Below, piece by piece: positions 171 to 38,100 of a DNA stretch of 38,639 nucleotides. Origin of the DNA: Candidatus Onthoplasma sp. (GTDB lineage Bacteria; Bacillota; Clostridia; Christensenellales; UBA1242). Location of the stretch: NCBI GenBank assembly GCA_045637745.1, contig JAZUAB010000009.1:1-38639 (forward strand), read 5' to 3'. Numbering within the stretch: position 1 is the stretch's first letter; every line of letters starts with the position of its first letter. Both the position numbers and the translations under genes were made by a program. Below the pieces are notes generated by a model, which was given only the letters and a program-made list of their open reading frames with translations, searched no databases and was not told where the DNA came from.

Positions 171-767
171 TTATAGAGGACTGCTCGTCTTTAAATATTT
201 ATAAAATGTAGATTTATTCATTTTTAATTTTTGCAAAGCTATGGATAAAGAAATCGCTTTATTTGTATATAACAATACTACCTCTTTATAATTTGATGGC
301 AGCTTATATTTAGGTCTTCCTAAATGTTTGCCTTGCAGTTTTGCAATGCGAATTCCTTCTGCTTGTCGCTTTTTAATATTTTCACGTTCATTTTCAGCAA
401 CAAAGGACAATATTTGTAAAACAATGTCACTAATAAATTTACCTACAAGGTTTTTGCCGTCTATTCTAGTGTCCAACAAAGGCATATCAAGAACAACTAT
501 ATCAACATTAAGCCTATTTACAATATCCTTCCACTCTTCGATAATCATATCATAATTTCTGCCAAGCCTATCAATGCTTTTAATTATAAGTAAATCGCCA
601 CTTTTTAAAAGCGTTTTTAAATTTTGATAATTAGTTCTATCAAAATCTTTGCCACTTTGCTTATCAATAAAAATTTGATTGTCTGATAATCCTTGTTTAT
701 ACATTTCATCCATTTGCCTATCAATGTTTTGATCCCTTGTAGAAACTCTTACATAACCATAATTCAT
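171..767 (-). CDS. Small serine recombinase (resolvase/invertase family) with C-terminal HTH
   Basis: N-terminal YGYVRVSTRDQ catalytic-serine motif, GDLLIIKSIDRLGR, and ENERENIKKRQAEGI. The 198-aa size is typical of Hin/Gin/resolvase enzymes. GTGAGGTG RBS upstream. Confidence 0.9.
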   Translation of the reverse strand: MNYGYVRVSTRDQNIDRQMDEMYKQGLSDNQIFIDKQSGKDFDRTNYQNLKTLLKSGDLLIIKSIDRLGRNYDMIIEEWKDIVNRLNVDIVVLDMPLLDTRIDGKNLVGKFISDIVLQILSFVAENERENIKKRQAEGIRIAKLQGKHLGRPKYKLPSNYKEVVLLYTNKAISLSIALQKLKMNKSTFYKYLKTSSPL

Positions 768-786
768 AAATCACCTCACAAATAAG

Positions 787-795
787 ATTATATCA
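787..795 (-). promoter_or_regulatory. Possible extended -10 element (TGATATAAT on the minus strand) for the recombinase gene
   Basis: ATTATATCA on the plus strand is TGATATAAT on the minus strand, about 20 nt upstream of the recombinase ATG. No clear -35. Confidence 0.3.
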
Positions 796-796
796 A

Positions 797-832
797 ATAA
801 AAAACTCTACGAATGAACATAGAGTTTTTTTG
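797..832. terminator. A/T-flanked hairpin between the recombinase gene and the inverted-repeat segment
   Basis: AACTCT (803-808) pairs with AGAGTT (821-826) around a 12-nt loop, with an A-run before and a T-run after. It could terminate in either direction. Confidence 0.35.
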
Positions 833-837
833 TTTGT

Positions 838-854
838 AAAGGTGTACCTTTATA
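838..854. repeat. Left inverted repeat of the candidate invertible segment
   Basis: AAAGGTGTACCTTTATA is the exact reverse complement of 1034-1050. Its core AAAGGT-GT-ACCTTT is a 6-2-6 palindrome. Confidence 0.85.
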
Positions 855-996
855 CACTCCAAGATCATTCTGATATTGTTGTGTATATTACCGTAAAAAC
901 TGGAATTATTGTAATCATTATAGCACATTTATTAAGGAATTTACATAATTTTTAAAAATTTTTATGCAAAAATTTAAATTTGTATCAAAAATGAAG

Positions 997-1026
997 TTGC
1001 TAAGCGGGTTTTACTCAAGTATAAAT
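997..1026 (+). promoter_or_regulatory. Candidate sigma-A promoter inside the invertible segment, facing the methyltransferase gene
   Basis: TTGCTA (997-1002), a 17-nt spacer, then TATAAAT (1020-1026), about 75 nt upstream of the ATG at 1103. Confidence 0.45.
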
Positions 1027-1033
1027 AGAAGAA

Positions 1034-1050
1034 TATAAAGGTACACCTTT
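1034..1050. repeat. Right inverted repeat of the candidate invertible segment
   Basis: TATAAAGGTACACCTTT is the exact reverse complement of 838-854. Its core is AAAGGT-AC-ACCTTT. Confidence 0.85.
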
Positions 1051-1102: not shown

Positions 1103-3124
1103 ATGAGCGAACAACCAGATATAGATATAAAAGAAAATTATATACAATGCTTAGATGATGAACTTTTAAGTATTTTATTAAAAGATAGAAGCTCTGGCAA
1201 AAACATTATCTGGGCTACAGATGTATATGCGGAAAAAGGGTCTTCTTACGATAGCCAAGAGCCTATAACTGTAAAACTTATTACTGGAAGATTTGGAAAA
1301 GTAATCCGTCCTAGAACAGATAAATCAAAGAAAGAACAACAAATAAGAATAAAAGATAAGGCCGAAGTATTTACTCCTTCTTGGATTTGTAATGAAATGA
1401 ATAACCATATCAACGATGAATGGTTTGAAAGAAAAAATATTTTCAACACATCTAATGAAAAGCAGTGGACAACTAACGAAAGTAAAATTAAATTCTCAAA
1501 TGAAGAAGGTAAAACTTGGAAAGATTATGTGCAACTAAAAGTTCTAGAAATATCGTGTGGTGAAGCACCTTTCTTGGTTAGTAGATACGATACTACAACT
1601 GGTCAATGGATAAATGTAGGTGAACGTATTGGTGCTCTTGATAGAAAATTAAGGGTTGTTAATGAAAATACAAACACGGAGCCCGAATGGTATGAATGGG
1701 CTTTAAATGCTATTAAGTCAACCTTTGGTTACGAATGGCAAGGCGATAGTTTGCTTATTGCTAGAGAAAATATACTATTTACATTTATAGATTACTATAT
1801 GGATAGATTTAAAAACTTCCCAATTAAAGAATATTTAATAGAAATTGCCAAAATTCTATCTTGGAATATTTGGCAAATGGATGGTCTGAAATATGTAGTT
1901 CCAAATTCATGTAAGCCAAAACAAGAAAGGCAAATATCTTTATTCCAAGATGAAAAGTGTGAGCCTTGTGTAGGTTGCTTAAAAAATGATAATGGAAAAC
2001 ATATTGGAACTTACTGCAAAATAATGAATTGGGACACAAAAAGAACTATTAAGTTTTATAAAGGAGAAAAACGAATGAAATTTGATTTTGTAATTGGAAA
2101 TCCACCTTATCAAGAAAATATTAAAGATCGAAGTGAACAGCCCCCAGTCTATCATTTTTTCTATGATGCTTCTTTCTCAATAGGTAAAAAAGTATGTTTG
2201 ATTACACCTGCTAGATTTTTATTCAATGCTGGCAAAACTCCTAAAAACTGGAATGAAAAAATTTTATCAGATACTCACTTTAAGGTTATTAAATATGAGG
2301 AAAACTCCAGATTAGTTTTTCCTTCTGTTGAAATAAAGGGAGGCGTTGCAATAACATATAGAGATGAAAATAAAGAGTTTGGTGCTATTGGAAGCTTCTT
2401 AAAAAATGATGTTATGTCTTATATTTTAAATAAGGTAAAAATATATTCTAATAGCTATCTTAATTCTATAATTTATTCTAATACAAGCTACAAGTATACA
2501 AAATATTTAAAAGAAGATTATCCAGAATATTTCATTAAAGATAAAGATGGAAAATCTATCCTTTCTGGTGGATCTGCCAGATATCTAGCGTCATCAGTTT
2601 TTGAAAAATTACCAAACCTATTTTGTAAATCGATACCTAAAGGTTCTAACCATTATATTAAGATTTTAGGAAGAAAAGATAACCACAGGTCAGAACAATA
2701 TATAAAATCAAAATATATAAATCCACCCGACAATTTTACTCTATACAAAGTGTTTATTTCAAGTTCAAATGGAACCGGTGAATTTGGTGAAGTTTTAACG
2801 ACTCCATTTGTAGTAGAACCTAATGTGGGTGCAACTGAGACATTTGTTAGTATTGGTGCTTTTAAATATAAGTTTGAAGCCGATAATCTTGTAAAGTATT
2901 TAAAGACAAAATTTGCCAGAGCATTGCTTGGGACTCTTAAAGTTACTCAAGGAAATAAGAATTCTGATGTGTGGAAAAATGTTCCTCTTCAAGACTTTAC
3001 TGATAAATCAGATATTGATTGGGCAAAATCAATCCATGAAATAGATTTGCAACTTTATTCTAAATATGGATTAGATGAAAAAGAAATTTCCTTTATCGAA
3101 ACACATGTAAAGGAGATGAATTAG
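1103..3124 (+). CDS. N6-adenine DNA methyltransferase (gamma-class motif order, Eco57I/TaqI-like) with a C-terminal target-recognition-like region
   Basis: EVFTPSW (motif X-like), VLEISCGEAPFLV (motif I-like) and FVIGNPPYQ (motif IV, NPPY at 2099-2110). A Cys cluster CEPCVGC...C lies between motifs I and IV. AAGGAG RBS. Confidence 0.8.
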   Translation: MSEQPDIDIKENYIQCLDDELLSILLKDRSSGKNIIWATDVYAEKGSSYDSQEPITVKLITGRFGKVIRPRTDKSKKEQQIRIKDKAEVFTPSWICNEMNNHINDEWFERKNIFNTSNEKQWTTNESKIKFSNEEGKTWKDYVQLKVLEISCGEAPFLVSRYDTTTGQWINVGERIGALDRKLRVVNENTNTEPEWYEWALNAIKSTFGYEWQGDSLLIARENILFTFIDYYMDRFKNFPIKEYLIEIAKILSWNIWQMDGLKYVVPNSCKPKQERQISLFQDEKCEPCVGCLKNDNGKHIGTYCKIMNWDTKRTIKFYKGEKRMKFDFVIGNPPYQENIKDRSEQPPVYHFFYDASFSIGKKVCLITPARFLFNAGKTPKNWNEKILSDTHFKVIKYEENSRLVFPSVEIKGGVAITYRDENKEFGAIGSFLKNDVMSYILNKVKIYSNSYLNSIIYSNTSYKYTKYLKEDYPEYFIKDKDGKSILSGGSARYLASSVFEKLPNLFCKSIPKGSNHYIKILGRKDNHRSEQYIKSKYINPPDNFTLYKVFISSSNGTGEFGEVLTTPFVVEPNVGATETFVSIGAFKYKFEADNLVKYLKTKFARALLGTLKVTQGNKNSDVWKNVPLQDFTDKSDIDWAKSIHEIDLQLYSKYGLDEKEISFIETHVKEMN

Positions 3125-3125
3125 T

Positions 3126-6100
3126 ATGCGAAAGATTAAATTACAAACTTCTGAGAAAGTTGCTCCTATGATCTACGCATATACCACTCCAGGTGTTGTG
3201 TATCATGATGGATGGACTAAGATTGGTTATACTGAAAGAGATGTTGATACTAGAATTAAAGAGCAAACTCAAACTGCGGATATCAAGGCAAAAAAGGAAT
3301 GGCAAGACCTGGCAATCTTTGCAGACGGCAAAACAAGGTTTACAGATAAAGAATTTCACTCATACCTTGCAAAGAACGATATAAAACGAAAAGATCCTCA
3401 ACCTGATACTGAAGGATGCCCAGAATGGTTTTATATTAGCGGTGAGGCGTCTTATGCCCTATTTGGAAAGTTTAGAAGAGATTTGGGTGTGTTGCAAACA
3501 TTGGGCGTTGTGCCTTATGTATTAAGAAATGAACAAAAACAAGCGGTGAATCAAACAAAAAATTATTTTTTAGATGATTCTAACAAAACAGAATTCCTTT
3601 GGAATGCAAAACCTCGATTTGGCAAAACATTGTCAACCTACGACCTATGTAAGTCCTTGCCAAATGTACATAAAATTTTAATTGTTACCAATAGACCAGC
3701 CATTGCAAATTCTTGGTACGATGATTATGTTAAATTTTTAGGTACAGAATCTGGTTACTATTTTGTAAGTAATGTTGACGCTTTGAAAACAAGAAAATAT
3801 GTTTTAAGCAGAGAAAAATACCTGGATAATCTATCATCACTACCTAATCATAAAGGATGCATTGAATTTGTTTCATTACAAGATTTAAAGGGCTCTATTT
3901 ATTTTGGAGTAACAGGCGGACATGATAAGTTAAGAGAAGTGGCGGAACTTGAATGGGATGTTTTAGTTATTGATGAGGCTCATGAAGGTGTTGATACCTA
4001 CAAAACTGACGTAGCGTTTGACCGGATAAAAAGAAGATATACGCTACATTTATCTGGAACACCCTTTAAGGCATTGGCTAATGAAAAATTTCCAGCAAAA
4101 GCAATATACAACTGGACTTATGCCGATGAGCAAAAAGCCAAACAGGAATGGGATTCAACTAGTGAAGAGGAAAACCCATATGCCAATCTTCCACAATTAA
4201 ATTTATTCACCTACAAAATGTCAGATATTGTTAGAGATAAAGTAGAACAAGGTGCTGACTTTGATGAGGATGGACAAAATGAAGCATTTTGCTGGGATTT
4301 AAATGAATTCTTTGAAACTAATGCAAATGGTGAATTTGTTCATGATTCTGCAGTAGATAAATTTTTAGATGCTTTAACAGTACAAGAAAAATTCCCATTT
4401 TCAACTAATGATTTACGTGCAGAATTAAAACATACACTATGGCTACTTAAATATGTTAGCAGTGCCAAAGCTCTTGCTAAAAAATTGCAACGTCATGAAG
4501 TGTTTAAAAACTATAAGATAGTTCTTGCTGCTGGCGATGGGAAGTTAGACAACGAAGGAAATTCAGAAAATGTGTATGCATTAGACAAAAATCTTAAAAA
4601 CTCTTATGATAAAGTTGTTGATGCTATTAAAAATTATTCAAGAACTATAACTATCTCTGTTGGTCAGTTAACTACTGGTATTACAATTCCAGAATGGACT
4701 GCTGTAATGATGCTTTCTAATGTAAAAAGCCCATCACTTTATATGCAATCTGCTTTCAGAGCCCAAAATCCATGTTTATTTAATGAAAATGGTTATAGCC
4801 TACGCAAGCAAAATGCATATGTGTTTGACTTTGATCCAGCTAGAACCTTAAACATTGTTGAAGAGTTCGCAAATGATCTTATTGCCGACACTGCTAATGG
4901 CAGAGGTGACACTAATGCCAGAAAACAAAATGTAAAAGAACTACTAAACTTCTTCCCTGTATATGGTGAAGATGACGAAGGCGAAATGATAGAACTTGAT
5001 GCGGAAAAGGTTCTTTCAATGCCTCGTGCAATACACGCAAAAGAAGTTGTAAGACGTGGGTTTATGAGTAATTTCCTATTTCAGAACATTGGAAATATAT
5101 TTAATGCACCAAAAGAAGTTATTGATATTATACAAAAATTTGATCCAGTTAAAGAGCCTGTTGGGGTTAAAGAAGATACAAAGAACGATTTAAATATTGA
5201 TGACAATGGAAATATCATAATTCCTGAAAAACAAATAATTGGAACTGCTAATGATATTTTTGGTGAAAAGATATATGGCGATATTGAAGCAAGCTTAATA
5301 AATTCAGTAGAAGCTATACAAGAAAATACATTATCTGGTAAAAAAGATGAAAAATTAAATTTATTATTAAAAGAATTTCATACAAACATTACTGATACAC
5401 TTGTTAATACAGCAAAGGCAAATTATGGCAACAATCTGTCAAAATCAACACAACAAGCGTTAGTAAGAAAAATTAATACTACTACCGACATGTTGATAAG
5501 AAAACAATTTGCTGATTATCAAATTAACAGTAATCAACTTGAAAATGAAAGAATAAAAGAGATTGAGCAAGCAAAACAATCTGGAAATTCTAACAATATA
5601 CAACAAATTAACATTAATTTTGATGAGAAGAAAAAGCAAATAGAATCAACTTTTAAGTCTTCAATTCAATCGGAAATTAAAAATATTATAGAAAACACAG
5701 GCAAAACCATTGCTGAAACTGTTGAAAAAGACAACAAAGAAAAACAAAAAAATTCAATAATGGATAATGTTAGAGACCATTTAAGAGGGTTTTCAAGAAC
5801 TATTCCTTCATTTATTATGGCTTATGGAGATGAAAATACAACACTTGAAAATTTTGACACAATAATACCAGATGAAGTATTTAAGGAAGTTACCAGTATT
5901 TCGCTTGATGAGTTTAGAAGACTTAGAGATGGTTTTGATTATACCGATGAGAATGGAAAACAAAATCATTATAATGGGTTCTTTGATTCGATTGTATTTA
6001 ACGACTCCATTAAAGAGTTCTTAAAGAAAAAAGAGGAACTTTCAAATTATTTTGACGATAATTCTAAGGGAGATATATTCGACTATATCCCACCTCAAAA

Positions 6101-6497
6101 AACAAATCAAATCTTTACTCCTAAAAAGGTCGTTCAAGAAATGGTTGATAATTTAGAAAAAGAAAACCCAGGATGTTTTGATAATCCAGACCATACATTT
6201 ATTGATTTATATATGAAATCTGGATTATATATGGCTGAAATAGTAAAACGCCTTTTTAGAAGCAGTAAAATGAAAGAATTATATCCAGACGAGAATAAAA
6301 GACTAGAGCATATTTTTGAAAAACAAGTATTTGGTCTTGCTCCAACAGAAATCATTTATAAAATTGCAGAATCCTTTATTTTAGGATTTGCAAAAGATAA
6401 AGGCATAACTAAACATAATTTAAAACATTTTGACGCTTTACCAGATGCTCAAAACGGAACACTTGAATCAAAACTAGATGAGATTTTTAATAAATAA
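3126..6497 (+). CDS. Multidomain protein: N-terminal T5orf172/GIY-YIG-like domain, SF2 (DEAH) helicase/translocase, Asn/Lys/Gln-rich linker, C-terminal methyltransferase-like domain lacking NPPY. Putative restriction/defence subunit.
   Basis: N-terminus WTKIGYTERDVDTRIKEQ...PEWFYI. Walker A PRFGKT (GKT at 3621-3629), VLVIDEAHEG (DEAH at 3972-3983), LSGTPF, QLTTGITIPEW and QSAFRAQNP. The tail from 6111 reads IFTPKKVVQEMV...FIDLYMKSGLY...VFGLAPTEI. The ATG lies 1 nt after the upstream stop codon. Confidence 0.8.
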   Translation: MRKIKLQTSEKVAPMIYAYTTPGVVYHDGWTKIGYTERDVDTRIKEQTQTADIKAKKEWQDLAIFADGKTRFTDKEFHSYLAKNDIKRKDPQPDTEGCPEWFYISGEASYALFGKFRRDLGVLQTLGVVPYVLRNEQKQAVNQTKNYFLDDSNKTEFLWNAKPRFGKTLSTYDLCKSLPNVHKILIVTNRPAIANSWYDDYVKFLGTESGYYFVSNVDALKTRKYVLSREKYLDNLSSLPNHKGCIEFVSLQDLKGSIYFGVTGGHDKLREVAELEWDVLVIDEAHEGVDTYKTDVAFDRIKRRYTLHLSGTPFKALANEKFPAKAIYNWTYADEQKAKQEWDSTSEEENPYANLPQLNLFTYKMSDIVRDKVEQGADFDEDGQNEAFCWDLNEFFETNANGEFVHDSAVDKFLDALTVQEKFPFSTNDLRAELKHTLWLLKYVSSAKALAKKLQRHEVFKNYKIVLAAGDGKLDNEGNSENVYALDKNLKNSYDKVVDAIKNYSRTITISVGQLTTGITIPEWTAVMMLSNVKSPSLYMQSAFRAQNPCLFNENGYSLRKQNAYVFDFDPARTLNIVEEFANDLIADTANGRGDTNARKQNVKELLNFFPVYGEDDEGEMIELDAEKVLSMPRAIHAKEVVRRGFMSNFLFQNIGNIFNAPKEVIDIIQKFDPVKEPVGVKEDTKNDLNIDDNGNIIIPEKQIIGTANDIFGEKIYGDIEASLINSVEAIQENTLSGKKDEKLNLLLKEFHTNITDTLVNTAKANYGNNLSKSTQQALVRKINTTTDMLIRKQFADYQINSNQLENERIKEIEQAKQSGNSNNIQQININFDEKKKQIESTFKSSIQSEIKNIIENTGKTIAETVEKDNKEKQKNSIMDNVRDHLRGFSRTIPSFIMAYGDENTTLENFDTIIPDEVFKEVTSISLDEFRRLRDGFDYTDENGKQNHYNGFFDSIVFNDSIKEFLKKKEELSNYFDDNSKGDIFDYIPPQKTNQIFTPKKVVQEMVDNLEKENPGCFDNPDHTFIDLYMKSGLYMAEIVKRLFRSSKMKELYPDENKRLEHIFEKQVFGLAPTEIIYKIAESFILGFAKDKGITKHNLKHFDALPDAQNGTLESKLDEIFNK

Positions 6498-6734: not shown

Positions 6735-7590
6735 CGAACGGACAAATGCAGTCCGAACGGAATTTATAAAATAATTGTGAATTTTGTTTTCGATATGCCA
6801 AATGGTGGCATATCGAAAATTTTAAAATAAATTTGTCCGATGCACCAAACGTGTGTGCATCGGGATTATTAAAATTTATTTATAACCTGCCCAAATGGTG
6901 GGCAAGTTAGTTTGTTAAAATACCTATAGATTCAAATAAAGTAATAAAAATTCCCCGTATCACAAGCCGTGTGTGATGCGACAATTATATATTTTATTTG
7001 TAAAATATCCCTTGCAGTATCAAATGGTGCTACAGCGAAATTGTTAAAATTTAATTGCAACGTGTCCAAATGGTGGACACATTAACATTGTAAAATGTTT
7101 TCCGATACGACAAATAGTGTCGGAACGAGAATATTAAAATCTTGAAAAATAATCCCGTTACACCAAATGTTGGTGGATCGGTCTTAGTAAAATGAAGGAG
7201 GAATTTATGAAAAAGTTTTCAAAATATTTCCCGAGTGTTCAAACGATGAACAGGCGGGATTAGTAAAATACTTAAAAATAATTCCGTATTGGCAAATGGT
7301 GTCAATGCGAAAGTATTAAAATTCTTAAAAAATATTTCCCGTGTTATCAAATGGTGATAATACGGCTCTAGTAAAATAACTATAAAAATATTCTCCGTAT
7401 TGGCAAATGGTGTCCCAACGGGAGTGATAAAATTTCATTAAAAAGATTTCCCGATGTGCAAAATGCTTGCACAACGGGATTGCTAGAATGAGATAAATTT
7501 TAGGTGTATCAAAGGTTGATATACCTAGTTAACTAGAATAATTACATAACCAAATAAAAATTGGTTTTACCGATGGACTGCAGCCGTCGT
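6735..7590 (+). repeat. Tandem array of about 16 hairpin units (spacing 44-76 bp, mostly about 46-57) with conserved loop and flanks and covarying stems
   Basis: Unit consensus is (T)CCCG-N-variable arm-CAAATGGTG-complementary arm-N-CGGG(A), then TAAAAT/TAGAAT, then an A/T-rich spacer. One example is a perfect 14-bp stem at 6787-6800/6806-6819 with loop AATGG. Hairpin centres lie near 6747, 6803, 6850, 6896, 6968, 7025, 7071, 7115, 7168, 7244, 7297, 7352, 7408, 7464, 7514 and 7579. Confidence 0.85.
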
Positions 7591-8825: not shown

Positions 8826-9044
8826 ATGAAAAGAATTAGAACTATTACAGAAACATTACAAATGCTAAAAACCGAAGATCCAAATACTGGACTTAGCGAA
8901 TTTTTAATAAGAAAACTTGCAAACAATCACAAGATCCGTTCATTTAAGACGGGCAACAAAATATTAGTTGACTACGATTCATTGATGGCGTTCTTGCAAA
9001 GTCAAGATTATGACCTACCAATGGAACAAATCGTGGTTAGATAA
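8826..9044 (+). CDS. Excisionase-like HTH DNA-binding protein (Xis/DUF6462-like)
   Basis: 72 aa reading IRTITETLQMLKTEDPNTGLSEFLIRKL...FKTGNKILVDYDSLMAFL, immediately upstream of the integrase. GGAGG RBS. Confidence 0.65.
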   Translation: MKRIRTITETLQMLKTEDPNTGLSEFLIRKLANNHKIRSFKTGNKILVDYDSLMAFLQSQDYDLPMEQIVVR

Positions 9045-9057
9045 AAGGAGAAAACAT

Positions 9058-10449
9058 ATGGCATGTATACAAAAAAATAAACTACAAGACGGTTCAGTGT
9101 CTTACCGAATTCAAGTAAAGGCAAAGAACATACGAACTGGAAAGTTTGAAGCCAAATCAATCACTTGGCGCAAACCTTTAGATATAACCGAAAATCAAGC
9201 AAAGAAAGAACTTAATCGTATCGCCGTCGATTTAGAAGAAAAGTTCAATAAGCAACTTAATGGCCTTCTTTCACTAGACAATGAAGTAACCTTTATTGAC
9301 TATGCTGAAAGGTGGCTAGAAAAAATCAATCATACTCGCTCACTCAACTACTATATACGAGGTCGAGATAGTATAAGAAAATTCCATAAATACTTTGGCA
9401 ATATTAAACTAAATCAAATAACGCCCGTTATGGTGCAAGGTTTTATAGACGAAATGGTGTCTAAAAAGTATGAAAAGAAATCAGCAATACTTACTGGCGA
9501 CATCAATCAGTATTTAAAGTCGCATCGTATCAAGCAGATTGATATTATTAGGCAAAGTGGACTTTCAAAATCCATTTTCGTATCAGCAAATGCTAAACAT
9601 AGCATAAGAATTGAAAATGCTCAAAAGATATGCGATGCGATTGGAATTAACTACGATGATTACTTTACAACAGAGATAAAAAGCCAACATTATGCCAAAG
9701 AAACAGTTTTAAGATACAAAAGGATGTTACACACAATACTAGCCGATGCTAAAAGGCAAAGGCTGGTGGAACATAATTTTGCATCAAGCGACTATTTAAC
9801 GCCAATTAAAGGCTATAAAAAAGAAATTAAAATACTTAATGATAAAGAGGCAAAGGTTCTAGCCAACTATTTACACACCGAACCTAATCCAAGATGGAAA
9901 ATCGCATTGTTTATAGTATTATTTATGGGATTAAGGCGTGGCGAACTTGCTGGCCTAGAGTGGAAAGATATTGACTATGAAAACAAAACTATGACAATCG
10001 CAAGGTCGGTGCAAGATATTCCAGGCTTTGGCCTTATCACAAAAGAACCTAAAACCGAAAACTCAAAACGCACAATCTCAATGCCAAATAAACTAATTAA
10101 TTACTTAAAGGAATATGAAATTTATTGGCACGAACAAAAAGCATATCTTGGCGACCGCCTTGGCAATACCGACCGATTATTCTGCACCGAAGATGGCACA
10201 AACATCTCCCCTGGTATGTTTATAGTGTGGCTACATAAAACCCTAGACAAAGCAGGCTTGCCACAAGTCTCACTCCACTCACTACGCCACACAAACATAA
10301 CCTTACAACTAATCGCAGGTGTAGATATGAAAACAGTCTCCACCCGTGCAGGCCACTCAAAAGCATCAACTACTAGCGACTTCTATAGCCACTTCATCAA
10401 GAACTCCGACATCCACGCCAGCGAAATAATTAATAAAATTTTTGAATAA
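9058..10449 (+). CDS. int: Tyrosine site-specific integrase (Tn916/phage-integrase family) with an internal XRE-like HTH insertion
   Basis: Catalytic signature GLRRGELAGLEW (R), LHSLRHT (HxxR) and TSDFYSH (Y). The start was moved from 9010 to the ATG at 9058, which follows AAAAGGAG. Confidence 0.9.
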   Translation: MACIQKNKLQDGSVSYRIQVKAKNIRTGKFEAKSITWRKPLDITENQAKKELNRIAVDLEEKFNKQLNGLLSLDNEVTFIDYAERWLEKINHTRSLNYYIRGRDSIRKFHKYFGNIKLNQITPVMVQGFIDEMVSKKYEKKSAILTGDINQYLKSHRIKQIDIIRQSGLSKSIFVSANAKHSIRIENAQKICDAIGINYDDYFTTEIKSQHYAKETVLRYKRMLHTILADAKRQRLVEHNFASSDYLTPIKGYKKEIKILNDKEAKVLANYLHTEPNPRWKIALFIVLFMGLRRGELAGLEWKDIDYENKTMTIARSVQDIPGFGLITKEPKTENSKRTISMPNKLINYLKEYEIYWHEQKAYLGDRLGNTDRLFCTEDGTNISPGMFIVWLHKTLDKAGLPQVSLHSLRHTNITLQLIAGVDMKTVSTRAGHSKASTTSDFYSHFIKNSDIHASEIINKIFE

Positions 10450-10513
10450 AGTAAAAATAATGATGACATTTTATCAATTTTATGATATAATTTCTTCATA
10501 CAAAGGAGTTGTT

Positions 10514-11620
10514 ATGGCATACAAAGAAAGAAAAAATATTTATAAAAAAATTGAAGAAAAAAGAAATAGACCATTAATTGTCTATGTAACATCTATAAGA
10601 CCTAATCTTTCCAGCAATATGGGTGGTGATGCCATCGCAGAAATAATAGAGCAAATTCAACTAATTCCTGAAGACAAAAAAGAAGTTGATTTTATGATTA
10701 TAAGCAATGGCGGTGATGCCATTGTGGCTCTTAGAATAATAAGTATGTTAAGAGAGAGATTTGACAAGGTGTCTGTATTGTTGCCATATGTTGCTTATAG
10801 TGCAGCAACAATCTTATCTTTAGGTGCGGACGATATAGTAATGCATCCATTTTCGAACCTTGGACCCATAGATCCACAGCTCACAACAATTAAAAAGAAT
10901 CAGCAAGGACAAACAGAACAAAGAAGTTTTAGCTCGGAAGATTTAAGGAACTTTATTGATTTTATAAAAACAGATGTTGGCGTTACAGACCAACAACATT
11001 TAATTACTGCTATATCTCCTTTGCTAAATGATATAGGAGCATTACCAATAGGGAACGCTAAGAGAAGCCAGCAATTATCTCTATCTTTAAGTGAAAAAAT
11101 GCTTAATTTACATTTGCAAGACAAAAACAAGAGTAAAAATATTGCTAAACAATTAAATTCTTCATATTATCATCATGGGTATGCTGTCGGAAGAAAAGAA
11201 GCTCAAGAAATTGGGCTTGATATTGTTATTCCAGACAATGAACTGGAAAATTTATTATGGGAAGTTTGGCAAGACTTTTCTAATGAAATGAACGCAAATA
11301 CAGTATTTGATCCCGTAAGAGAACTTTTTACAAATCCAGAATCAAGTGAAATTTTATCAAAAGTTCCAGTCGTGGAAATTCCTGCTAACACTCCACAACC
11401 TTTGATACAAAATTTGTATGTACAATTATCTCAACAGGCTGCAAGAGTTGAAAATAAACCAACAATCAGAATGAAACATTTAATTGCATCTATTGAAAGC
11501 ACAAATTTAGCCAAAGCTTCATATGCTAATAGTGATATAGCTTATTGGAGGAACATGGATATGAGTATAGGTTTTAATTGTACTATATTCCCAACAGGTT
11601 GGACAAAATATAATCAATAG
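10514..11620 (+). CDS. ClpP/SppA-fold serine protease of the SDH (serine dehydrogenase proteinase) type
   Basis: RPLIVYVTS...FMIISNGGDAIVALRIISMLRERF...LLPYVAYSAATILSLGADDIVMHPFSNLGPIDPQ. The start was moved to the ATG at 10514, which follows AAAGGAG. Confidence 0.7.
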   Translation: MAYKERKNIYKKIEEKRNRPLIVYVTSIRPNLSSNMGGDAIAEIIEQIQLIPEDKKEVDFMIISNGGDAIVALRIISMLRERFDKVSVLLPYVAYSAATILSLGADDIVMHPFSNLGPIDPQLTTIKKNQQGQTEQRSFSSEDLRNFIDFIKTDVGVTDQQHLITAISPLLNDIGALPIGNAKRSQQLSLSLSEKMLNLHLQDKNKSKNIAKQLNSSYYHHGYAVGRKEAQEIGLDIVIPDNELENLLWEVWQDFSNEMNANTVFDPVRELFTNPESSEILSKVPVVEIPANTPQPLIQNLYVQLSQQAARVENKPTIRMKHLIASIESTNLAKASYANSDIAYWRNMDMSIGFNCTIFPTGWTKYNQ

Positions 11621-11838: not shown

Positions 11839-11915
11839 TGGTGTGAGTAGGCAGATTTGAACTGCCGGCCTGTCGCTTAGGAGGCGACCGCTCTATCCAG
11901 CTGAGCTATACCCAC
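11839..11915 (-). tRNA. tRNA-Arg (anticodon CCU) with encoded CCA
   Basis: The minus strand reads GUGGGUA-UA-GCUC-AGCUGGAUA-GAGC-G-GUCGC-CUCCUAA-GCGAC-AGGCC-GGCAG-UUCAAAU-CUGCC-UACUCAC-A-CCA. This is a full cloverleaf with one G-U pair in the acceptor stem. Confidence 0.9.
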
Positions 11916-29189: not shown

Positions 29190-32100
29190 TTATCTCACTT
29201 TCATTCTTGTTCTTAACCAGATTACTGTTCCAATTAAACCAACAACAATTAAAACAATTATTACAATCAATATAATTGCCACAGTATTTAATGGTTCCTT
29301 AATTGTAAAGTTAAGACTTGTTAAAACATTCCCACTATCACCAACTAATTGAACGTAATATTCTCCAACACCTGTTATTTCTCTTTCAACAAGACCTGTT
29401 GTTGTATGATCAATACGCATAATCTCTTGTCCATTTACAACTAAGATGCACTCTCCAACCTGATCATAAACATTTTCCGCGTTAAATTTTAATACAACAG
29501 GTTTTGTTGTTTTTTCGCCAGGCTTAATTGATGTGGTAATGGTAGGCTTTGCGTTATTTAATGTAAATGAAAATTCCACTTCGCGAGTAGGCAATAATGG
29601 ATCGTCATTTACTCGATATAACATTTTAAACTTCATTTTACCTTGAGTAGCAGTTCCAAATGTCTCTACCAAACGATCATAAGTTACCAACTTGTTGTAC
29701 ACATCAACACCACCAACATTTGCCTTATCTTGCAACATTCCAACAAATTTGCTTGTAACATCAATTTCCGTCGTCTTTAGTACGCTAAATACCGACACTA
29801 TTTCATACCCATAAATAGATGTGAAATCAAGAGCGTTTCTAGCCTCATTTGGATTAAGTATTGTGAATATTAGTTGAGTTGAAACTTCTTCTCCAGTGCT
29901 TAATAAATCTGCAGTAATATTAACAACATACGTTCCATAATCTTTAAAAATATATCTTAATGAATTTGTAGGATGCTCATAACCTTTATAGTTTGGAGTT
30001 CCATTTAAGTTCACATTAATTTCAATAGAGCTAGGAACATAATTGTTAAGCCCAGTAATCTCATTGTAGTCATTTATCTGTAAAGTTACAGGCTTATCAT
30101 AGTAAGCATATTGAATAGGCGCGCTACCAATACTTGAATCATCATCTCCGACCTTAACAGTATACAATATATCATTTTTCTTCATCAGTACAATTGTGAA
30201 TCTGTCTAACGTACTAGTTGACGTCTTGAAATATTGTACATTACCGGCATAATCTTGAATCTTCAACGTATAACTTCCACTATTCTTAAAATTAATTTCG
30301 CTTAAATCATTATTTGCATTACCCACAATTCTGCTAGAAGACTTTTCATCGTTATTATAGTATATATCTATAATTATTCGATTGTGTTGTTCTAATGGGT
30401 TTGTGTTATAGTGATTTTTGTTATACGAACTAAATTTCAACTTATAGTATTCTGCATCTGCATCGTATATCGATTTAGATGTTCCGCTTGATAATAAGTT
30501 GTGTTGATCTGCTTGTTCGCTTCCAGTCATAAATAATAATTGCGATAAAATACTTGTAGAAGCATCAGTTTCACGCACTTCCATTGTTACTACAAATGTG
30601 CGATAATTAGATCTATGCACATGATACAGCCTTATAATTGCTGTTCCTGTCATAAGTTCACAATAATCTGCCTTCACTCCATTATCTTCATTACTATGTA
30701 ATATTAATGCTTGGGCATAATTGCTGTCGTTTACATCAATAATTTTATTCTTTGCAATATACATTTTAATTGCTGTTTGTTTGCCAAAACTGTTAATTGC
30801 AGTCTTCATATGACTTTCATTATCAAAGCCCAAGCTTTCACACTGCCTTAACAAATTACTTTCGCCAAACGTCTCAATAACTTCATCTAAATTGGTAAGC
30901 GTTGCTGGATCGCAAATATTATCGTTAGCGTCACGAACTTCATATAGTCCAGAAATAGTAGTTGACATCGCGATACCATACACACGAGATGCTATCCATT
31001 CATCAGCCTTATCTTTAATAGTGACTACGAAAACATATTTACCCGTGTTGTCAGGGTTAGGTGCAAGTGGATAACTTTCTTCACCTCCCTTTAACAATTG
31101 TTTAGGTGGATCGTTTTGGTTACGAAATTCATATAGGTCATAAGTATAAATAAAGTAATCGCTGGTTGATTTGGTCCACGAAATATTAACTGTTTCAGCT
31201 ATTAAATCTTTATAGTACTTTCCATCACGCAAGTCAATTGTATTGTACTCCTCCGTATTATTAAATGTGGATTTAATCATTGAGATTTTATCTTCATAAT
31301 TGGTGTTTTCAATTCTAAACAATGTTGACGTCGTATCAATCACAACTTTATATGTATGCGTAGCATCACTTTCATCAAGCAATTTTATTTCTACATCAAA
31401 ATTACGGCAAGAACCTTCATCTTCTGGATTTAGAGGTGTGTCAGCATATAAGGTGATATACGCGTATTTGCCTTTCTCCTCGTAACCGTAATGAGTGCCT
31501 TCCGTTGCTGGACCGCTATCTAATAGCACATCCGCTGTATAAAAGTCAATGTTATATGAAATCTTGATATCTGTTGCCGTATATAACACACCAGTAGGTT
31601 GATAAACATTGTCTGGCAAATCAATATATTGATAGTGGTAATAACCTTCAGTGGTTGAAATCCTCAACTTATAATCGTTATTTGCAATATCAGTTAATGT
31701 GATTAAATATTGAATATTGTCGGCTAAATCTAGTCTGTCCGAAGCAGTTTCACTACGCAATTTAACTTCAGTAATATTATCATAATTCTGCCCCTCTGGA
31801 ACTGTAAGCGTAGTTAAGCCATTATCAAAACTTGCGTTGTATGATAATGTGTGTTCATCTCCATTTGTCGCCTTATATTTCACTTCAACCTTTTTTACAT
31901 ACCACCAAGTATTTGTATCAATTTTATTATTTACTTCGCTTAATAATATATACTTCTGTCCAAATTCTCCTTTCTTCCATGACAAGTCAGTCTTCAGCCT
32001 ATAATCTTCGCTATTATATGTATTGATGGCTAGCAAATAGGTTTTTCCATATACGTCCACAAATTCAAGTCTGTAGTTACCCTGGTTTTTAACAATTTCT

Positions 32101-35100
32101 AATATTTCTTCTGCAATATCTTCAGGCTTAGATTTTGAGTTTATGTATATCTTTTTAATATCACTAGCACTGCTGGACGCATTGTAAATATTAATATTAC
32201 CATAATACTGTTTACCTGACGATGCCAATCCATTGACTGTAATACCATTATCATCAATCTCAATAAAGGCTTTTTGGTTATCGCTTGTTAAAACTGGTGT
32301 AAAATTCATAGTCTCATCAGTTTTTTCATCATTGCCAATTAATTTACCTGTAATCGTTAATGATGGACTTGTTGGTGTCGATGGTGTAAAGTATACCACA
32401 TACTGTGTTAAATTTCCCGCTTTGTCTTTTTCAACAATTTCGTAATATTTGCCCTCTATGTTTTGATACTGTTGATTTGATCCTGCTATAATAAGCCCCG
32501 CATATTTGTCCTTTTCACTTCCAGTAAATCGATTCATGCGATATTCTGTTAAAACTTCGTTAAATGTATAAAAGCCTGTTGAATTACCAAAATATCTATC
32601 ACTTATAGGTATTAATCCCATACGTTGTTTAGCGTCAATATCGTTATTAAAGTCCAATTCACGATAATATATTGCATATAAATCTTCATGTTTAAATTCG
32701 GTTGTATCATCAATAGCAATTGCATACATTGCTTGACTGGCATTATCGAATTGTGAATTATTAACAAATTGATAATAAAGATTATTTGTCAATCCATAGT
32801 AGTCGCCTATAGAATTAGTGTTACGATATGCAAAATTTGCATTGATATTTATATCTTCATTTTCGCTGGCACCGGACAACCACTTATGATAATCTTCAAA
32901 ATATGCATTTTGATTTGATAATATCGCATTTAAGTTTTGGTCGTCTGGAGTTCTATCAACATATACCGTATATACTGATTTGTAGAAGTCTGTGCTTACA
33001 AGACTTACATCTTCGTTTGCCCCGTTTTGAGTTGCGTATTTATAATTATAGTATTGAGATGCGGTATTATTTAATATATATTGAACATTTATAGTATAAA
33101 TATATTCCTTATAACCAATAATTTGTCCAGATGTGGCATCTGTTTCAATATCTGTAGGCAACTTGATAATCCATTTGTCTGGATTTGTTCTATCAATTAT
33201 TGAATCGTTATTCCAAGGAAGGCTGGAATTTACTATTCCATTCTTTAATTCAAACCACAGTTTATTATCGGTTCCATCTATGTTAGAACGATATATTGAA
33301 AAATTCTTTTGGTCCACTTGAGCATTGTAAGATGATAAGTCTTCCAAGTTAAGTTCAAAATCAACATATTCTTGATTTGTATATAACTCTTTGCCTGTTG
33401 CATATGTTGGAGTGCTAGTTAGATTTTTATCCTCATTTTTAGCATAAGCATATACATCAATATTTGGCTCTTGCTTAGTTAATTTAATGCCAAATGTAAA
33501 TGTGTTGTAGTCGGTTATATTATTAGCATCGTTGTGCTCTGTTCCTACAAGGTCATTGATTACAAAAATATACTCGCCCGGCAAACTTAACGCATTGTCA
33601 TTAGAATGTGTTCTGGCATTCATATATTCAGCCAGCAACCCTTTCATTCCCTCATCATCAGTTTTAAAATCTAAATCAATATACTCGTCGGCTTTATATT
33701 CACGCTTATCCATCAATGTCATTGTTGATTCGCCATCATTTATTACCGATTGAGGCAATATTTTATATGTATCTTTAAAATATATGCTTAATTGTAGTTT
33801 TAATGTGTTATATGATGTGGCGATTATTTGTGACGACGTTTCGGTATATTTACCTGTCACATATTTACCGGTAGGAACTTTAATGCTTGTTGGCATTTTG
33901 TTTGTTTCTACATATACCTTATATTGCATATTTTTAGATAAATCTGTAGGATCTACAATTAATGTTTTAGGACTTAATCCTTGTTTAGTAAAATTGTCAT
34001 AGTGAACTTCAGCATCACTTGTAGGCATTGACGCATGGATAAATTGTCCCACAATCTTTTCGCTTACATTGGATAATGAATATCCTACTATTGCATTTCT
34101 ATCAACAAAGAATGCATATGAAAAGTTTTCGTCAGAATCAGCATTATTGCCAGTTCTAAGTGTTCTTGTAATAATATATAATCCGGTTTGTGTTACGCTA
34201 CGCGATACTAAAGATTCCCCTTCATAATATGTCTCAAAACCCAAATTTATAGGATTGCTACGATAAATGGTACCGCCATCTCTGGTAGCCTCACTATAAT
34301 CTTTAACCTCAATTGTGTCACCATTTTTAGTTAAAATTTCATTTGTTGTAATATATTTATAAGGATAATAGGGTTCTGTCAATTTATCAGTAACACCCTC
34401 TAATTCGTTGCCACTCATCAACTTATAATAATGATACACCACGCTTATTACTTCAAAGTTGTCTTCAGTGTTTGGCTTGATCCATTCAAATACGAATTTG
34501 CCGTCATCAGACGCTTGAGCGATGTCACACACATCAATACTTAGTGTATCTCCCAACTCTCCAGTTGACAATTCAGACCCGTCAACCTTTGCGTTAGACA
34601 CCCTGTCTGCCGGATAAACTTCATTGTTATATTCACTAGTATTAGTAGCCGAACTTGAATATATGGTTCCCAATGCTTTATCTGGGGTTATTACTATATT
34701 GAAGTTAATATTGGTATTGTTGTCAACTTGGTTTCCTCCCACAACCGATACGGTGTAACGTCGGGCGCCAGTTTTGTCAACCAATATTGTAAGATTTGAG
34801 TTTGTGTAATTAGTAAATAGCCTATCTGCGACACTATCAGCCTGCCATCCAGAAGCAATGCCACCATAATATCTAGTTTGTTTCTCGCCATATTTTGTAA
34901 TGCGGTAATAATTTTCATCTGCCATTTCTTTAAGTTCTACATATTCATGTTGAACCGCATATAACTGCGTGTCACTGACCGTAATAAATAGACTTAAAAT
35001 ATTGTTCCAGTTATTGCCCGACACTTGATAATAGTCTTTATAATATTCAGTTATGCTGTCGTCATCCTTTGTAAGTATGCTATAAATAATAGGATCTGGA

Positions 35101-38100
35101 GACTCGGTATCTGCTGACTTTGTAATAGAACTTAAGTCAATTGCTTTATGCGTACCCCATTCAGTATGAACTGGAGCCGCCACCTTTTCACCGTTATTAT
35201 AAACAATTTCGCTTGTCATAAATGAATCTATCTTGCCGTCGCCATCAGTATCTGTCCAACCGGTCAATTCGTTAATATTAACATTATCATCGTTATTAGT
35301 ATCTGTCCAACTAGTCAACTCGTCGCTGTCAATCTCGCCATCTTCATCTGCATCTTTCCAGCCTATCAACTCATCTACAGAAACTATGTCATCTTTATTG
35401 ATATCATTCCAGGTTATATAGTCACCATATGTTGCCGACACAATTGCATCGGTGCGGTCTATCACCATAATATATCTTAAAATATTGCCAGCCTGATCTT
35501 TTAATTCAAATTCATATATTCCTTGATTTGTTAAAACATTATCGCTTAACAATGCGCCACTTAACGTTGCTGGTCTATCTATTGATATGGCTTTTGATGA
35601 AGTTCCCGCTACATATCTATTAGTTATATACGTATAGGTTACATCGCCTGTGGTTTCTTCTGGTTTTTTAATCTCATTATCAGTTTTTACAAATGGGGTA
35701 TAAACATATGTTGCACTAATTTGAGCTCTACTAGCCTTGTCACTCCAACCAATTGTAAAATTAGTGTTAATTGTGCCTTTGTCTGTGTGTTTAATATATT
35801 TCATTTGGGCATCACGACCAATAGTATATATAGCCTTGTTGTCTAAGATTGAAGTAGTTACTTGATAAACTTCTAAACCAGAAATTGCATCTTTATCTAT
35901 TGTAAAATAACTATAGGTTCTTGTTGCCGACTTTTCAACTTCTAACACAATCATATATGAATCACTATCGGTTATAATTGTTTCTTTGGTGTATTCCCTG
36001 TGTCTAATATTGGTGCTTGCTCCACCATTTATCACGCTTAAATATGTCTCTTCTTGAGGGTATGCTTTGTTTGTTGTATAATATAGTTTTCCTGTTATTT
36101 GAGATTCGAATACGCCTCTATCTTCCCAAGTTGCATATACATTTTGATTAGTAAATTCACGCGCATAAAAGTTTGTTCTATCACCATTTGCATTATTCCC
36201 TTCCGTTTTGTATAGCTCAAGTTGAGGTGTTGCAGACGTTATTTGGAATGCAAAATATTGTGCGCCTTTATCATTTGCAGTAGCGGCAGCAGAGTCAAGT
36301 TTATATTCATAACAAGCTTTTACAAGATAATAGCCTGGAGCAGTAAATGTAGTAACTTTGGTAAAATTGATTTCTTCAAAATCTGTTAGAATAGTTTCAG
36401 AAGTATATGCCCCTGAATAATAATAATATTCACTATTATCTAAATCATATTCATCATTTAGTGTTAACCATAAGCCTCTATCGGTTTTTGAGTATTCACT
36501 TTCGCTAGGTAATGTGGCTGTAAAATCAGATATACTTCCAGCCTCGCTAGTGTTAACTACCTTTCCTGTCTTCTCAGTGCCAGCAACCAACTCATAATGT
36601 ATGCCTAACGCGTCACCATCACGTTCCTTAGCCGAACTTGTAAATCCATTAAGCAGAATAAACATTGTGCCATTTTGAACAATTTTCAAATCCACCATGT
36701 CGGCACTGATAAATCCAGCCTTAGAGTACTTTAATTGATAACCATATATATCTAATGACATATTGCCAAAAGCTAAGTCTTGTTTGTCAATAATCAGATT
36801 GGTCGCATCTTTGGTATAAATATACTTAATGTCAAATGTATATTGTCCATTATCAGCAAACATTAACGATAAAATCTTATTATCTTTTTCATCTTCATTC
36901 TCAGGCTTCGTAAAATCATCAACCCGATAGTATTTGGATGTTCCCTCGTCATATATAGTTGTTGTTACAACGATTTCTCTACTAGCATCATCATATACAA
37001 TATCAACATTTTTGTGCAAATCGCCACTAATATGCGTATAACTTATTTTATATCTAGTGTAGTCGTATGTAAGAGTTGGATAATTATAATTATCGCCATA
37101 GTTGAAATAATATTGACGATTAGTTGCAATGCTTGTTGATTTTACTGTAGCATTTTCAAATGTAGGTTTAGATGTATATTGATTGTCATTCACTTCAACA
37201 GTATCGCTATATGAAGATTCTAACAATAGATAAAAATCAAATTCAGCCTTCAATGCCTTACCATCTACCATATAAGATATACTAATCTCATAATGCCCCT
37301 CAGCTCCATCAATAAACCAAGTAAAATCTTGATATTGATTGTTGTATGTGCGTGAACTAGGTATATCGGTTAAAACTGTTCCATCTCTAGTCACCTTAAC
37401 TGAAACATATTGCATTTCAGCACCAACATTTAGATAGTATTTGCCATCTGAATAATACGCTCCGTCAGAATAGTAGTCTTTAATGTCATTACTATTCGTA
37501 TCAATCCAGCCGGTCAATTCAGTAGAATTAATAGTGGTATCATTTGTATCAACCTTTCCATCAGCATTTGTATCAATCCAGCCGGTCAATTCTACCGCTT
37601 CAACAACTCCCTCAGTGCCAGCGTCGGTGCGATCTGTCCAGCCTGTAAGTTCGCCTTCATCAATTTGACCATCTTCATCCGTATCAGTCCAGCCTGTTAG
37701 TTCAGTTGCATCAACTATATCGTCATTGTTTGTATCTGTCCATTTTAACGATGGTGTCCAGCCTGGAAGATTATTAAGTGTGCCGGTCCAGCCAAACAAC
37801 TCTCCAGCTTCAACCTCTCCCTGAGTGCCAGCGTCGGTGCGATCTGTCCATTCTATCACATTCTCGTGGACCCAATTTGCATTCAACTCCGTAATATCAA
37901 CTTCGTTATCTTTGCTTCCAGCATCGGTACAGCCTGGAAGATCATTTAAATCTCCAGACCAACCACTTAATTCATCAGTGGTTATTTTATAATCCTTATT
38001 TTTATCATCCCAACGTATTGCACCCTTGTCAGTCCAGCCTGTTAATTCACTGACATCAACTATTCCTTTGTTTTTCGTATCAGTCCAGCCTGGAAGCCCC

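Follow-up and report, generated by a model that had tools for sequence, protein, structure and literature searches.

Genes and features of the locus

The window analysed here, a single stretch of 38.6 kb (38,639 nt), carries near its start a gene for a small serine recombinase and an operon that encodes an adenine methyltransferase and a helicase, with a short intergenic segment between them that is bracketed by inverted repeats. The features of this region are listed below in window coordinates.

171 to 767, minus strand: small serine recombinase of 198 aa, a presumed invertase (PF00239, E = 3e-26).
787 to 795, minus strand: predicted extended -10 promoter of the recombinase itself, TGATATAAT, between the terminator and the recombinase ATG.
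799 to 830, minus strand: predicted intrinsic terminator, a hairpin with a U-run (terminator scan match running from 830 to 799).
838 to 854: recombinase-proximal inverted repeat and crossover site, with the core AAAGGT-GT-ACCTTT at 838-851 and its centre at 844-845.
855 to 1033: invertible interior of 179 bp, an exact reverse complement in contig L002 versus contig L001 (179/179) and also flipped in contig L003.
855 to 890, minus strand: leader block ATACAC...TTGGAGTGTAT, abutting the repeat downstream of the conserved promoter and kept across lineages.
917 to 927, minus strand: predicted conserved extended -10 promoter TGTGCTATAAT, with TATAAT at 922-917 and a predicted start near 910, reading toward 838.
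997 to 1026, plus strand: TTGCTA-17-TATAAAT, the candidate promoter of an earlier note on this DNA, probably weak or non-functional.
1034 to 1050: cargo-proximal inverted repeat and crossover site, with the core AAAGGT-AC-ACCTTT at 1037-1050 and its centre at 1043-1044.
1103 to 3124, plus strand: Eco57I-type N6-adenine DNA methyltransferase of 673 aa (PF07669, E = 5e-19).
3126 to 6497, plus strand: T5orf172 (GIY-YIG-like) and SF2 helicase protein of 1123 aa (ResIII, E = 4e-12).

The earlier note had placed an invertible promoter exactly between the gene of a 198-aa serine recombinase and the methyltransferase start, and the annotation agrees, with the recombinase on the minus strand at 171-767 and the methyltransferase ATG at 1103. 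The invertible segment does not include the recombinase gene, whose transcription runs away from it and whose start is 70 nt from the repeat, a spacing kept at 66-75 nt among close relatives.

The methyltransferase is the first gene of the operon, preceded by a ribosome-binding site (AAGGAG, 1092-1097), and its product has the catalytic motifs of a restriction-modification methyltransferase: the Eco57I domain, a PADLOC MTase_II match (E = 2e-120), and an NPPY motif at residue 333. A sequence search of the PDB found no solved structure that matches it, and an exact protein look-up found neither this methyltransferase nor the 217-aa ORF on record. The helicase protein encoded downstream has an N-terminal T5orf172 match of 20.6 bits against a Pfam cutoff of 20 and a DEAH box at residue 283. 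It is presumed to be the restriction or effector subunit; on Firmicute plasmids, homologs with 45-56% identity are encoded beside Eco57I-type methylases or form fusions with them, and searches of PADLOC, NCBIfam, and the PDB returned no match to it. Because this protein lacks a curated defence match, the cargo is called restriction-modification-like here and is not assigned to a typed system. Its proposed function in defence is a prediction from sequence.

An inverted repeat unlikely to have arisen by chance

The repeat AAAGGTGTACCTTTATA occupies 838-854 and its exact reverse complement 1034-1050, enclosing 179 nt, with coordinates and sequence just as they had previously been described. The identity of the two copies ends at 17 bp, with no extension on either side. 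Each copy contains the 6-2-6 palindrome AAAGGT-NN-ACCTTT that had also been reported, centred on GT in one copy and on AC in the other, and the proximal site, when given 12-bp half-sites, is a 26-bp imperfect palindrome, GTTTGTAAAGGT-GT-ACCTTTATACAC. A short intergenic segment between inverted repeats, here perfect ones of 17 bp around an interior of 179 bp, is expected of an inverton. Perfect inverted repeats of at least 17 bp with a spacer of 30-500 nt occur once in the 38.6-kb window, and the same search succeeded in only 1% of 200 versions of the full window shuffled so as to preserve dinucleotide frequencies. Of the top inverted repeats that a repeat finder listed for the first 8 kb, this pair alone has 100% complementarity. 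The 17-bp repeat is thus real and is unlikely to be a product of chance.

A window-wide search for a third copy of the 17-mer, allowing up to 3 mismatches, returned only the palindromic self-overlap, and no further good copy of the 14-bp core is present in the window. A scan for two repeats separated by 165-195 nt over contigs of one genome per species gave 0 matches, the strain of the window itself lying outside the species representatives. A small ORF or a known RNA inside the segment was also considered and rejected, as the segment holds only chance ORFs of up to 46 aa and has no Rfam match.

Inversion of the segment in natural DNA

An exact look-up of the recombinase protein in public assemblies returned three contigs, L001 (from ERZ28594013), L002 (from ERZ27316255), and L003 (from SRR28037988). 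The first has the orientation of the window. The second is identical to the first over 4592/4592 positions on the cargo side and 783/783 on the recombinase side, and its interior is the reverse complement of that of L001 at all 179 positions. L003 begins 13 nt inside the segment, and its recombinase-proximal repeat adjoins the other end of the interior, indicating that it too is flipped. Among recombinases of 78-87% identity, three more lineages, themselves of 78-86% identity, were found in both orientations, with interiors that are 100% reverse complements: the P0010 lineage (L164, L167, and L168 versus L165; 155/155), the P0019 lineage (L171 and others versus L172, L175, and L180; 175/175), and the P0030 lineage (L193-196 versus L200 and L201; 185/185). 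Flanks were unchanged between the two orientations in L001/L002, L164/L165, L171/L172 and L175, and L193/L200. Since the assemblies that show the flips were built with k = 111-141, far above the 17 bp of the repeat, these flips are not artefacts of the assembly graph.

Further, 20 of the 46 related contigs terminate inside or at the inverton. Among Logan contigs built with k = 31, some start exactly at the first base common to both orientations (L170, L179, L189, L191) and others precede the branch point by exactly 30 nt (L003, L187, L188). Judged from these ends as opposed to read counts, the pattern matches the de Bruijn graph of one sample that would hold both orientations. The 179-bp segment does flip in nature, and the central claim of the earlier note, an inverton beside a serine recombinase, is strongly supported by both orientations in public assemblies with identical flanks.

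These polymorphisms also bear on a different reading of the repeats, namely that a resolvase or transposon uses them as res-like or att-like sites, or that they are simply palindromic operators, and that the recombinase serves a mobile element. The affinity of the recombinase to the Sin, Tn3, and gamma-delta resolvases (see below) and the location of the locus in an island with a tyrosine integrase beside a tRNA-Arg gene would suit such a reading. However, the rearrangement observed is an inversion of the 179-bp segment only, with the flanks intact; the two sites are inverted and 179 bp apart, with no third site in the window; and the gene that directly follows the cassette always opens a restriction or defence operon. 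A role in a mobile element or as operators is largely refuted by the inversion polymorphisms and is now very improbable.

Position of the crossover and affinity of the recombinase

The P0010 lineage allows the crossover to be located. Here, the inner half-site has a C-to-A mismatch (AAAGGT-GT-ACATTT versus AAAGGT-AC-ACCTTT), and the flipped contig carries AAAGGT-GT-ACCTTT and AAATGT-AC-ACCTTT, such that the ACATTT mismatch travelled with the segment. Given this relocation, strand exchange must have taken place within the 10 bp AAAGGTGTAC, the central dinucleotide among them. The core AAAGGT-NN-ACCTTT is kept in all related invertons, and no lineage has a palindromic centre: it reads GT, or TT in L006. 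In the window the two partner sites agree, with GT in one and AC, which is GT on the other strand, in the other. A non-palindromic centre is required by serine recombinases, including Hin, Gin, and the resolvases, to give their sites polarity. A crossover within AAAGGTGTAC fits cleavage by a serine recombinase at the central GT.

The catalytic domain of the recombinase is intact, with the motifs VRVSTRDQ and SIDRLGRN, which contain the serine nucleophile and the arginine motifs, and an alignment with Sin that covers VRVS(9)TRDQ and SIDRLGRN. The C-terminal HTH_7 match is weak (E = 0.12, residues 150-194), and the alignment with gamma-delta resolvase spans residues 3-195. Sin is the nearest solved structure (2r0q, E = 9e-30), followed by Tn3 resolvase (3e-19), gamma-delta resolvase (4e-19), and Gin invertase (7e-14); the closest relatives are hence Sin and the resolvases and not the enteric and phage invertases of the Hin/Gin/Cin/Pin subfamily. 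Likewise, the NCBIfam model for Mpi (NF009949) scored 54.5 bits, below its family cutoff of 272. The protein would act like Hin or Mpi, yet by these comparisons it is a member of neither subfamily. The site architecture that had been likened to the hix sites of Hin therefore stands as to its geometry, with a crossover inside 10 bp around the central dinucleotide, and does not extend to kinship of the enzyme, which is nearer to Sin and the resolvases than to Hin or Gin.

The adjacent recombinase is the presumed catalyst of inversion, as its position and its co-variation with the rest of the cassette suggest. No recombinational enhancer was definable from the sequence of the locus. The host phylum, Firmicutes, is not known to have Fis, which makes a mechanism based on Fis and an enhancer unlikely.

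Putative promoters, terminator, and the probable state of the switch

The best-conserved block of the interior is TGnTATAAT, represented in the window by TGTGCTATAAT, a perfect Gram-positive extended -10 element with the TRTG "-16" motif. Seven recombinase lineages, as well as L006, have it at the same position and on the same strand of the segment. It is the only interior element kept in all lineages that share the segment type, and it always lies 60-70 nt from one repeat, pointing outward. Its -35 region is poor (GTAAAT), which counts against a promoter, and the element is called as a putative promoter from its consensus and its conservation. In the window it lies on the minus strand and faces the recombinase and the terminator; when the segment is flipped in silico it lies at 961-971 on the plus strand, followed by a leader of ~125 nt to the ATG at 1103 that is devoid of terminator-like structure. 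A consensus scan called no promoter between the repeat and the methyltransferase ATG. Because the conserved promoter faces the recombinase and the terminator, the methyltransferase operon is most likely OFF in the window, and a flip would turn it ON. On this assignment, a reference assembly can carry such an operon in its silent state. Of the contigs that could be classified, 24 have the promoter toward the recombinase (orientation A) and 13 have the other orientation (B); as a point against the assignment, this would mean a system that is mostly OFF, which is plausible.

The opposite assignment had been made in the earlier note, in which TTGCTA-17-TATAAAT (997-1026) is an active promoter, the window is ON, and inversion sends the promoter into the hairpin beside the recombinase. 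The motif exists, has the optimal 17-nt spacing, and faces the methyltransferase, and the terminator on the recombinase side would serve it equally well. Yet the consensus promoter scan did not call it, its -10 element being without T at -7, and in L001 and L002, which share the recombinase and have only 5 interior differences, the -10 reads TCTAAA, with the A at -11 lost. The region around it is the least conserved part of the segment, rich in indels, variable in length, and unalignable across lineages; the P0010, P0002, P0019, P0119, and P0030 lineages have no equivalent element, whereas TGnTATAAT on the opposite strand is invariant. An active promoter at 997-1026 with the window ON is therefore decidedly unlikely, and the ON and OFF states were probably reversed in that proposal, although TTGCTA-17-TATAAA faces the operon in the window and could supply some basal expression in the window lineage.

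The two motifs might also alternate, the operon toggling between the strong TGTGCTATAAT and the weak TTGCTA...TATAAA and so between high and low expression instead of ON and OFF. Both motifs are present in the window and diverge toward the two repeats, and the terminator would block whichever of them faces the recombinase. The second promoter is nevertheless specific to one lineage and degraded in its nearest relatives, and with no conserved feature to back such a swap we consider it unlikely.

A hairpin flanked by A/T runs had been noted beside the recombinase-proximal repeat. It is present, scores as a terminator on the minus strand, and is conserved in all lineages. Its RNA fold has an energy of -14.9 kcal/mol (z = -6.0), and a hairpin with a T-run lies at the same position in six other lineages with different stem sequences and energies of -11 to -25 kcal/mol. 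RNAalifold gave no consensus for the terminator region, the stems differing in length and register; when the region was folded lineage by lineage, a hairpin was found in every one. On the simplest reading, this terminator would insulate the recombinase from transcription that leaves the invertible segment. The recombinase has a putative promoter of its own downstream of the terminator, as TGRTATAAT lies 26-28 nt upstream of the recombinase ATG in 46/46 related loci examined.

The leader block that abuts the repeat has the form ATACAC-N22-24-TTGGAGTGTAT, is found at equivalent positions in L164, L171, L181, L184, and L193, and gives a 7-bp stem when the predicted transcript is folded. Its ATACAC part is the inverse of GTGTAT, the outer bases of the half-site. 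The block could be an accessory half-site bound by the recombinase or a hairpin of the 5' leader.

Taken together, we consider it likely, with a probability of roughly three in four, that the locus is a site-specific invertible promoter switch, captured in the window in its OFF state and operated by a serine recombinase encoded in cis. In the proposed mechanism, the 198-aa recombinase would bind the two AAAGGT-NN-ACCTTT sites and cut at the non-palindromic central dinucleotide (GT/AC), flipping the 179-bp segment and with it a single conserved, outward-facing extended -10 promoter, TGTGCTATAAT. In orientation A, that of the window, the promoter would fire toward the recombinase, transcription would stop at the terminator just outside the repeat, the recombinase would be expressed from TGATATAAT downstream of that terminator, and the methyltransferase/helicase-nuclease operon, having no recognisable promoter, would be OFF. 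In orientation B, the promoter would read through the other repeat and the ~125-nt leader into the methyltransferase and then the helicase-nuclease, and the operon would be ON. A methylase-first gene order would let the genome be protected before restriction resumes. The likely outcome is a reversible and heritable ON/OFF heterogeneity of a restriction-modification-like defence system.

Related cassettes and their distribution

The closest named genomes are Christensenellales MAGs, and the samples are from human and pig gut. A methyltransferase and T5orf172-helicase pair is found behind the same cassette in the P0010, P0002, P0119, and P0030 lineages and in L006 and L180. The same core site also precedes other cargoes: a Type III Mod methylase with a HEPN/AbiU2-like protein in L005, an EcoRI-like methylase with a GmrSD/HNH nuclease in L084, a complete DpnII cassette of two methylases and an endonuclease in L012 (Acholeplasmataceae), and a SNF2 helicase with an AHJR-like nuclease and DUF4391 in L171. 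In the relatives examined, the cargo is always a restriction or defence operon, and a methyltransferase comes first in each except L171. A single recombinase allele, P0019, occurs with one cargo in L171 and another in L180.

At least 120 protein clusters have 74% or higher identity to the recombinase. A scan of JGI-type metagenomes with the recombinase returned relatives of at most 70% identity, with the site type found only in L084, and no comparable upstream repeat was found with recombinases of 50-60% identity. The inverton thus belongs to a recombinase subfamily of roughly 67% identity and above. These observations raise the possibility, which we would place somewhat short of an even chance, that the recombinase, its own promoter, the terminator, and the inverton form a portable phase-variation cassette now dispersed among Firmicutes of the gut (Christensenellales, other Clostridia, and Acholeplasmataceae), that this cassette is dedicated to ON/OFF bet-hedging of unrelated restriction or defence operons, and that its Sin-like catalyst acts independently of Fis and an enhancer.

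Some relatives carry additional sequence resembling the site. A degenerate extra site, AAAGGTACATGTGT, lies ~20 nt outside the cargo-side repeat of L171 (~4716-4729), and AAAAGGTCAC directly abuts the outside of the cargo-side repeat in L164 and L181. These extra sites or half-sites may have an accessory function or be left over from earlier sites. Beyond the recombinase gene of relatives (L001 6311-7075; L164 6853-7503) lie stand-alone T5orf172/MUG113 proteins, AbiEii toxins, a Fic protein, and large UvrD/AAA_30 helicases, neighbours that place the cassette within defence islands.

Comparison with known systems and implications

Invertible promoters with serine invertases, such as those of Hin and Mpi, are textbook cases, and an invertible promoter with a serine invertase encoded in cis is a kind of element that is already known. 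As in Salmonella Hin/hix and in Gin, Cin, and Pin, a small serine recombinase here would invert a promoter-bearing segment, and the sites, like hix, have dyad-symmetric half-sites around a 2-bp non-palindromic core, in this case as a 26-bp imperfect palindrome. The differences are several. The recombinase gene lies outside the segment, whereas a Hin-type gene lies inside; the segment is 179 bp long versus about 1 kb in Hin/hix; the protein has its nearest relatives in Sin and the resolvases, with Gin more distant (9e-30 versus 7e-14); the cassette, unlike Hin/hix, appears to include a dedicated insulating terminator; and the cargo is a restriction-type operon instead of flagellin.

The polysaccharide invertons of Bacteroides fragilis controlled by Mpi are similar in their serine recombinase, short promoter segments (~170-230 bp), inverted repeats, and gut commensal host. 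However, Mpi is one master invertase that acts in trans on many loci, whereas here each locus appears to have its own recombinase in cis, and the repeat sequence and cargo differ, in keeping with a score of 54.5 against the 272 of the Mpi model. The closest relatives with solved structures are Sin and the beta recombinases of Gram-positive plasmids. Beta recombinase can catalyse inversion as well as resolution with the aid of a host DNA-bending protein. Sin and beta, in contrast to the system described here, act on res/six sites with accessory subsites in the resolution of plasmid multimers; no accessory site was identified at this locus, and the natural outcome is inversion of a putative promoter.

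Phase-variable restriction systems are well established (PMC11868660), and the hsdS shufflons, Type III mod phasevarions, and Type I system of B. fragilis resemble the present locus in generating reversible population heterogeneity in methyltransferase or restriction activity (PMC7641763, PMC7672463, PMC11868660). Those systems rearrange specificity genes, usually by tyrosine recombinases, or slip in repeat tracts, whereas here a whole operon is apparently switched ON or OFF through promoter inversion by a serine recombinase. Large inverton catalogues have been assembled with PhaseFinder, PhaVa, and DeepInverton (PMC10028968, PMC11602134, PMC11892184), and the element described here is of the same class and is supported by the same evidence, namely both orientations in sequence data. 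In the papers covered, invertons of Clostridia are tied to tyrosine recombinases, and restriction-linked inversions are those of hsdS shufflons (PMC11892184, PMC7672463, PMC7641763). A search of the searchable literature, with supplementary catalogues outside its reach, found no mention of the site AAAGGTGTACCTTT.

Restriction and other defence systems carry a cost and impede beneficial gene flow. With a heritable ON/OFF switch of the kind proposed, a clonal gut population could hold both protected and permissive cells, and adenine methylation would differ genome-wide between the two. The switch is compact and defined in sequence, has its own recombinase, and comes from Christensenellales, gut bacteria that are mostly uncultured and little studied. 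If the cassette is modular, it would account for some of the differences in methylome and phage sensitivity between strains of gut Firmicutes and would also supply a small switch based on a serine invertase, perhaps independent of enteric host factors.

The wider window

A tyrosine integrase (9010-10449) and a ClpP-like SDH protease (10442-11620) adjoin a tRNA-Arg(CCT) gene on the minus strand (11839-11915). Given an integrase beside tRNA-Arg, the first ~11.8 kb of the window, the inverton included, look like a genomic island integrated at the tRNA. No att-like direct repeat of the end of tRNA-Arg was found inside the window.

Between the stop codon of the helicase and the next ORF (6786-7528) lie at least 12 hairpins spaced ~50 nt apart. 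Their stems, of 6-15 bp, are all different, while the loop is conserved (CAAATGGTG, core AATGG), and each hairpin is followed by a tail such as TGnTAAAAT or TGnTAGAAT that resembles an extended -10 element. The array had no match in Rfam. Arrays of the same kind occur in MAGs of other gut Clostridia and Christensenellales (L271, L211, L243, L223), and L223 also shares the sequence between the hairpin array and the downstream ORF. At the far side of the window, an open reading frame of 3148 aa on the minus strand (29190-38636) runs almost to the window end.
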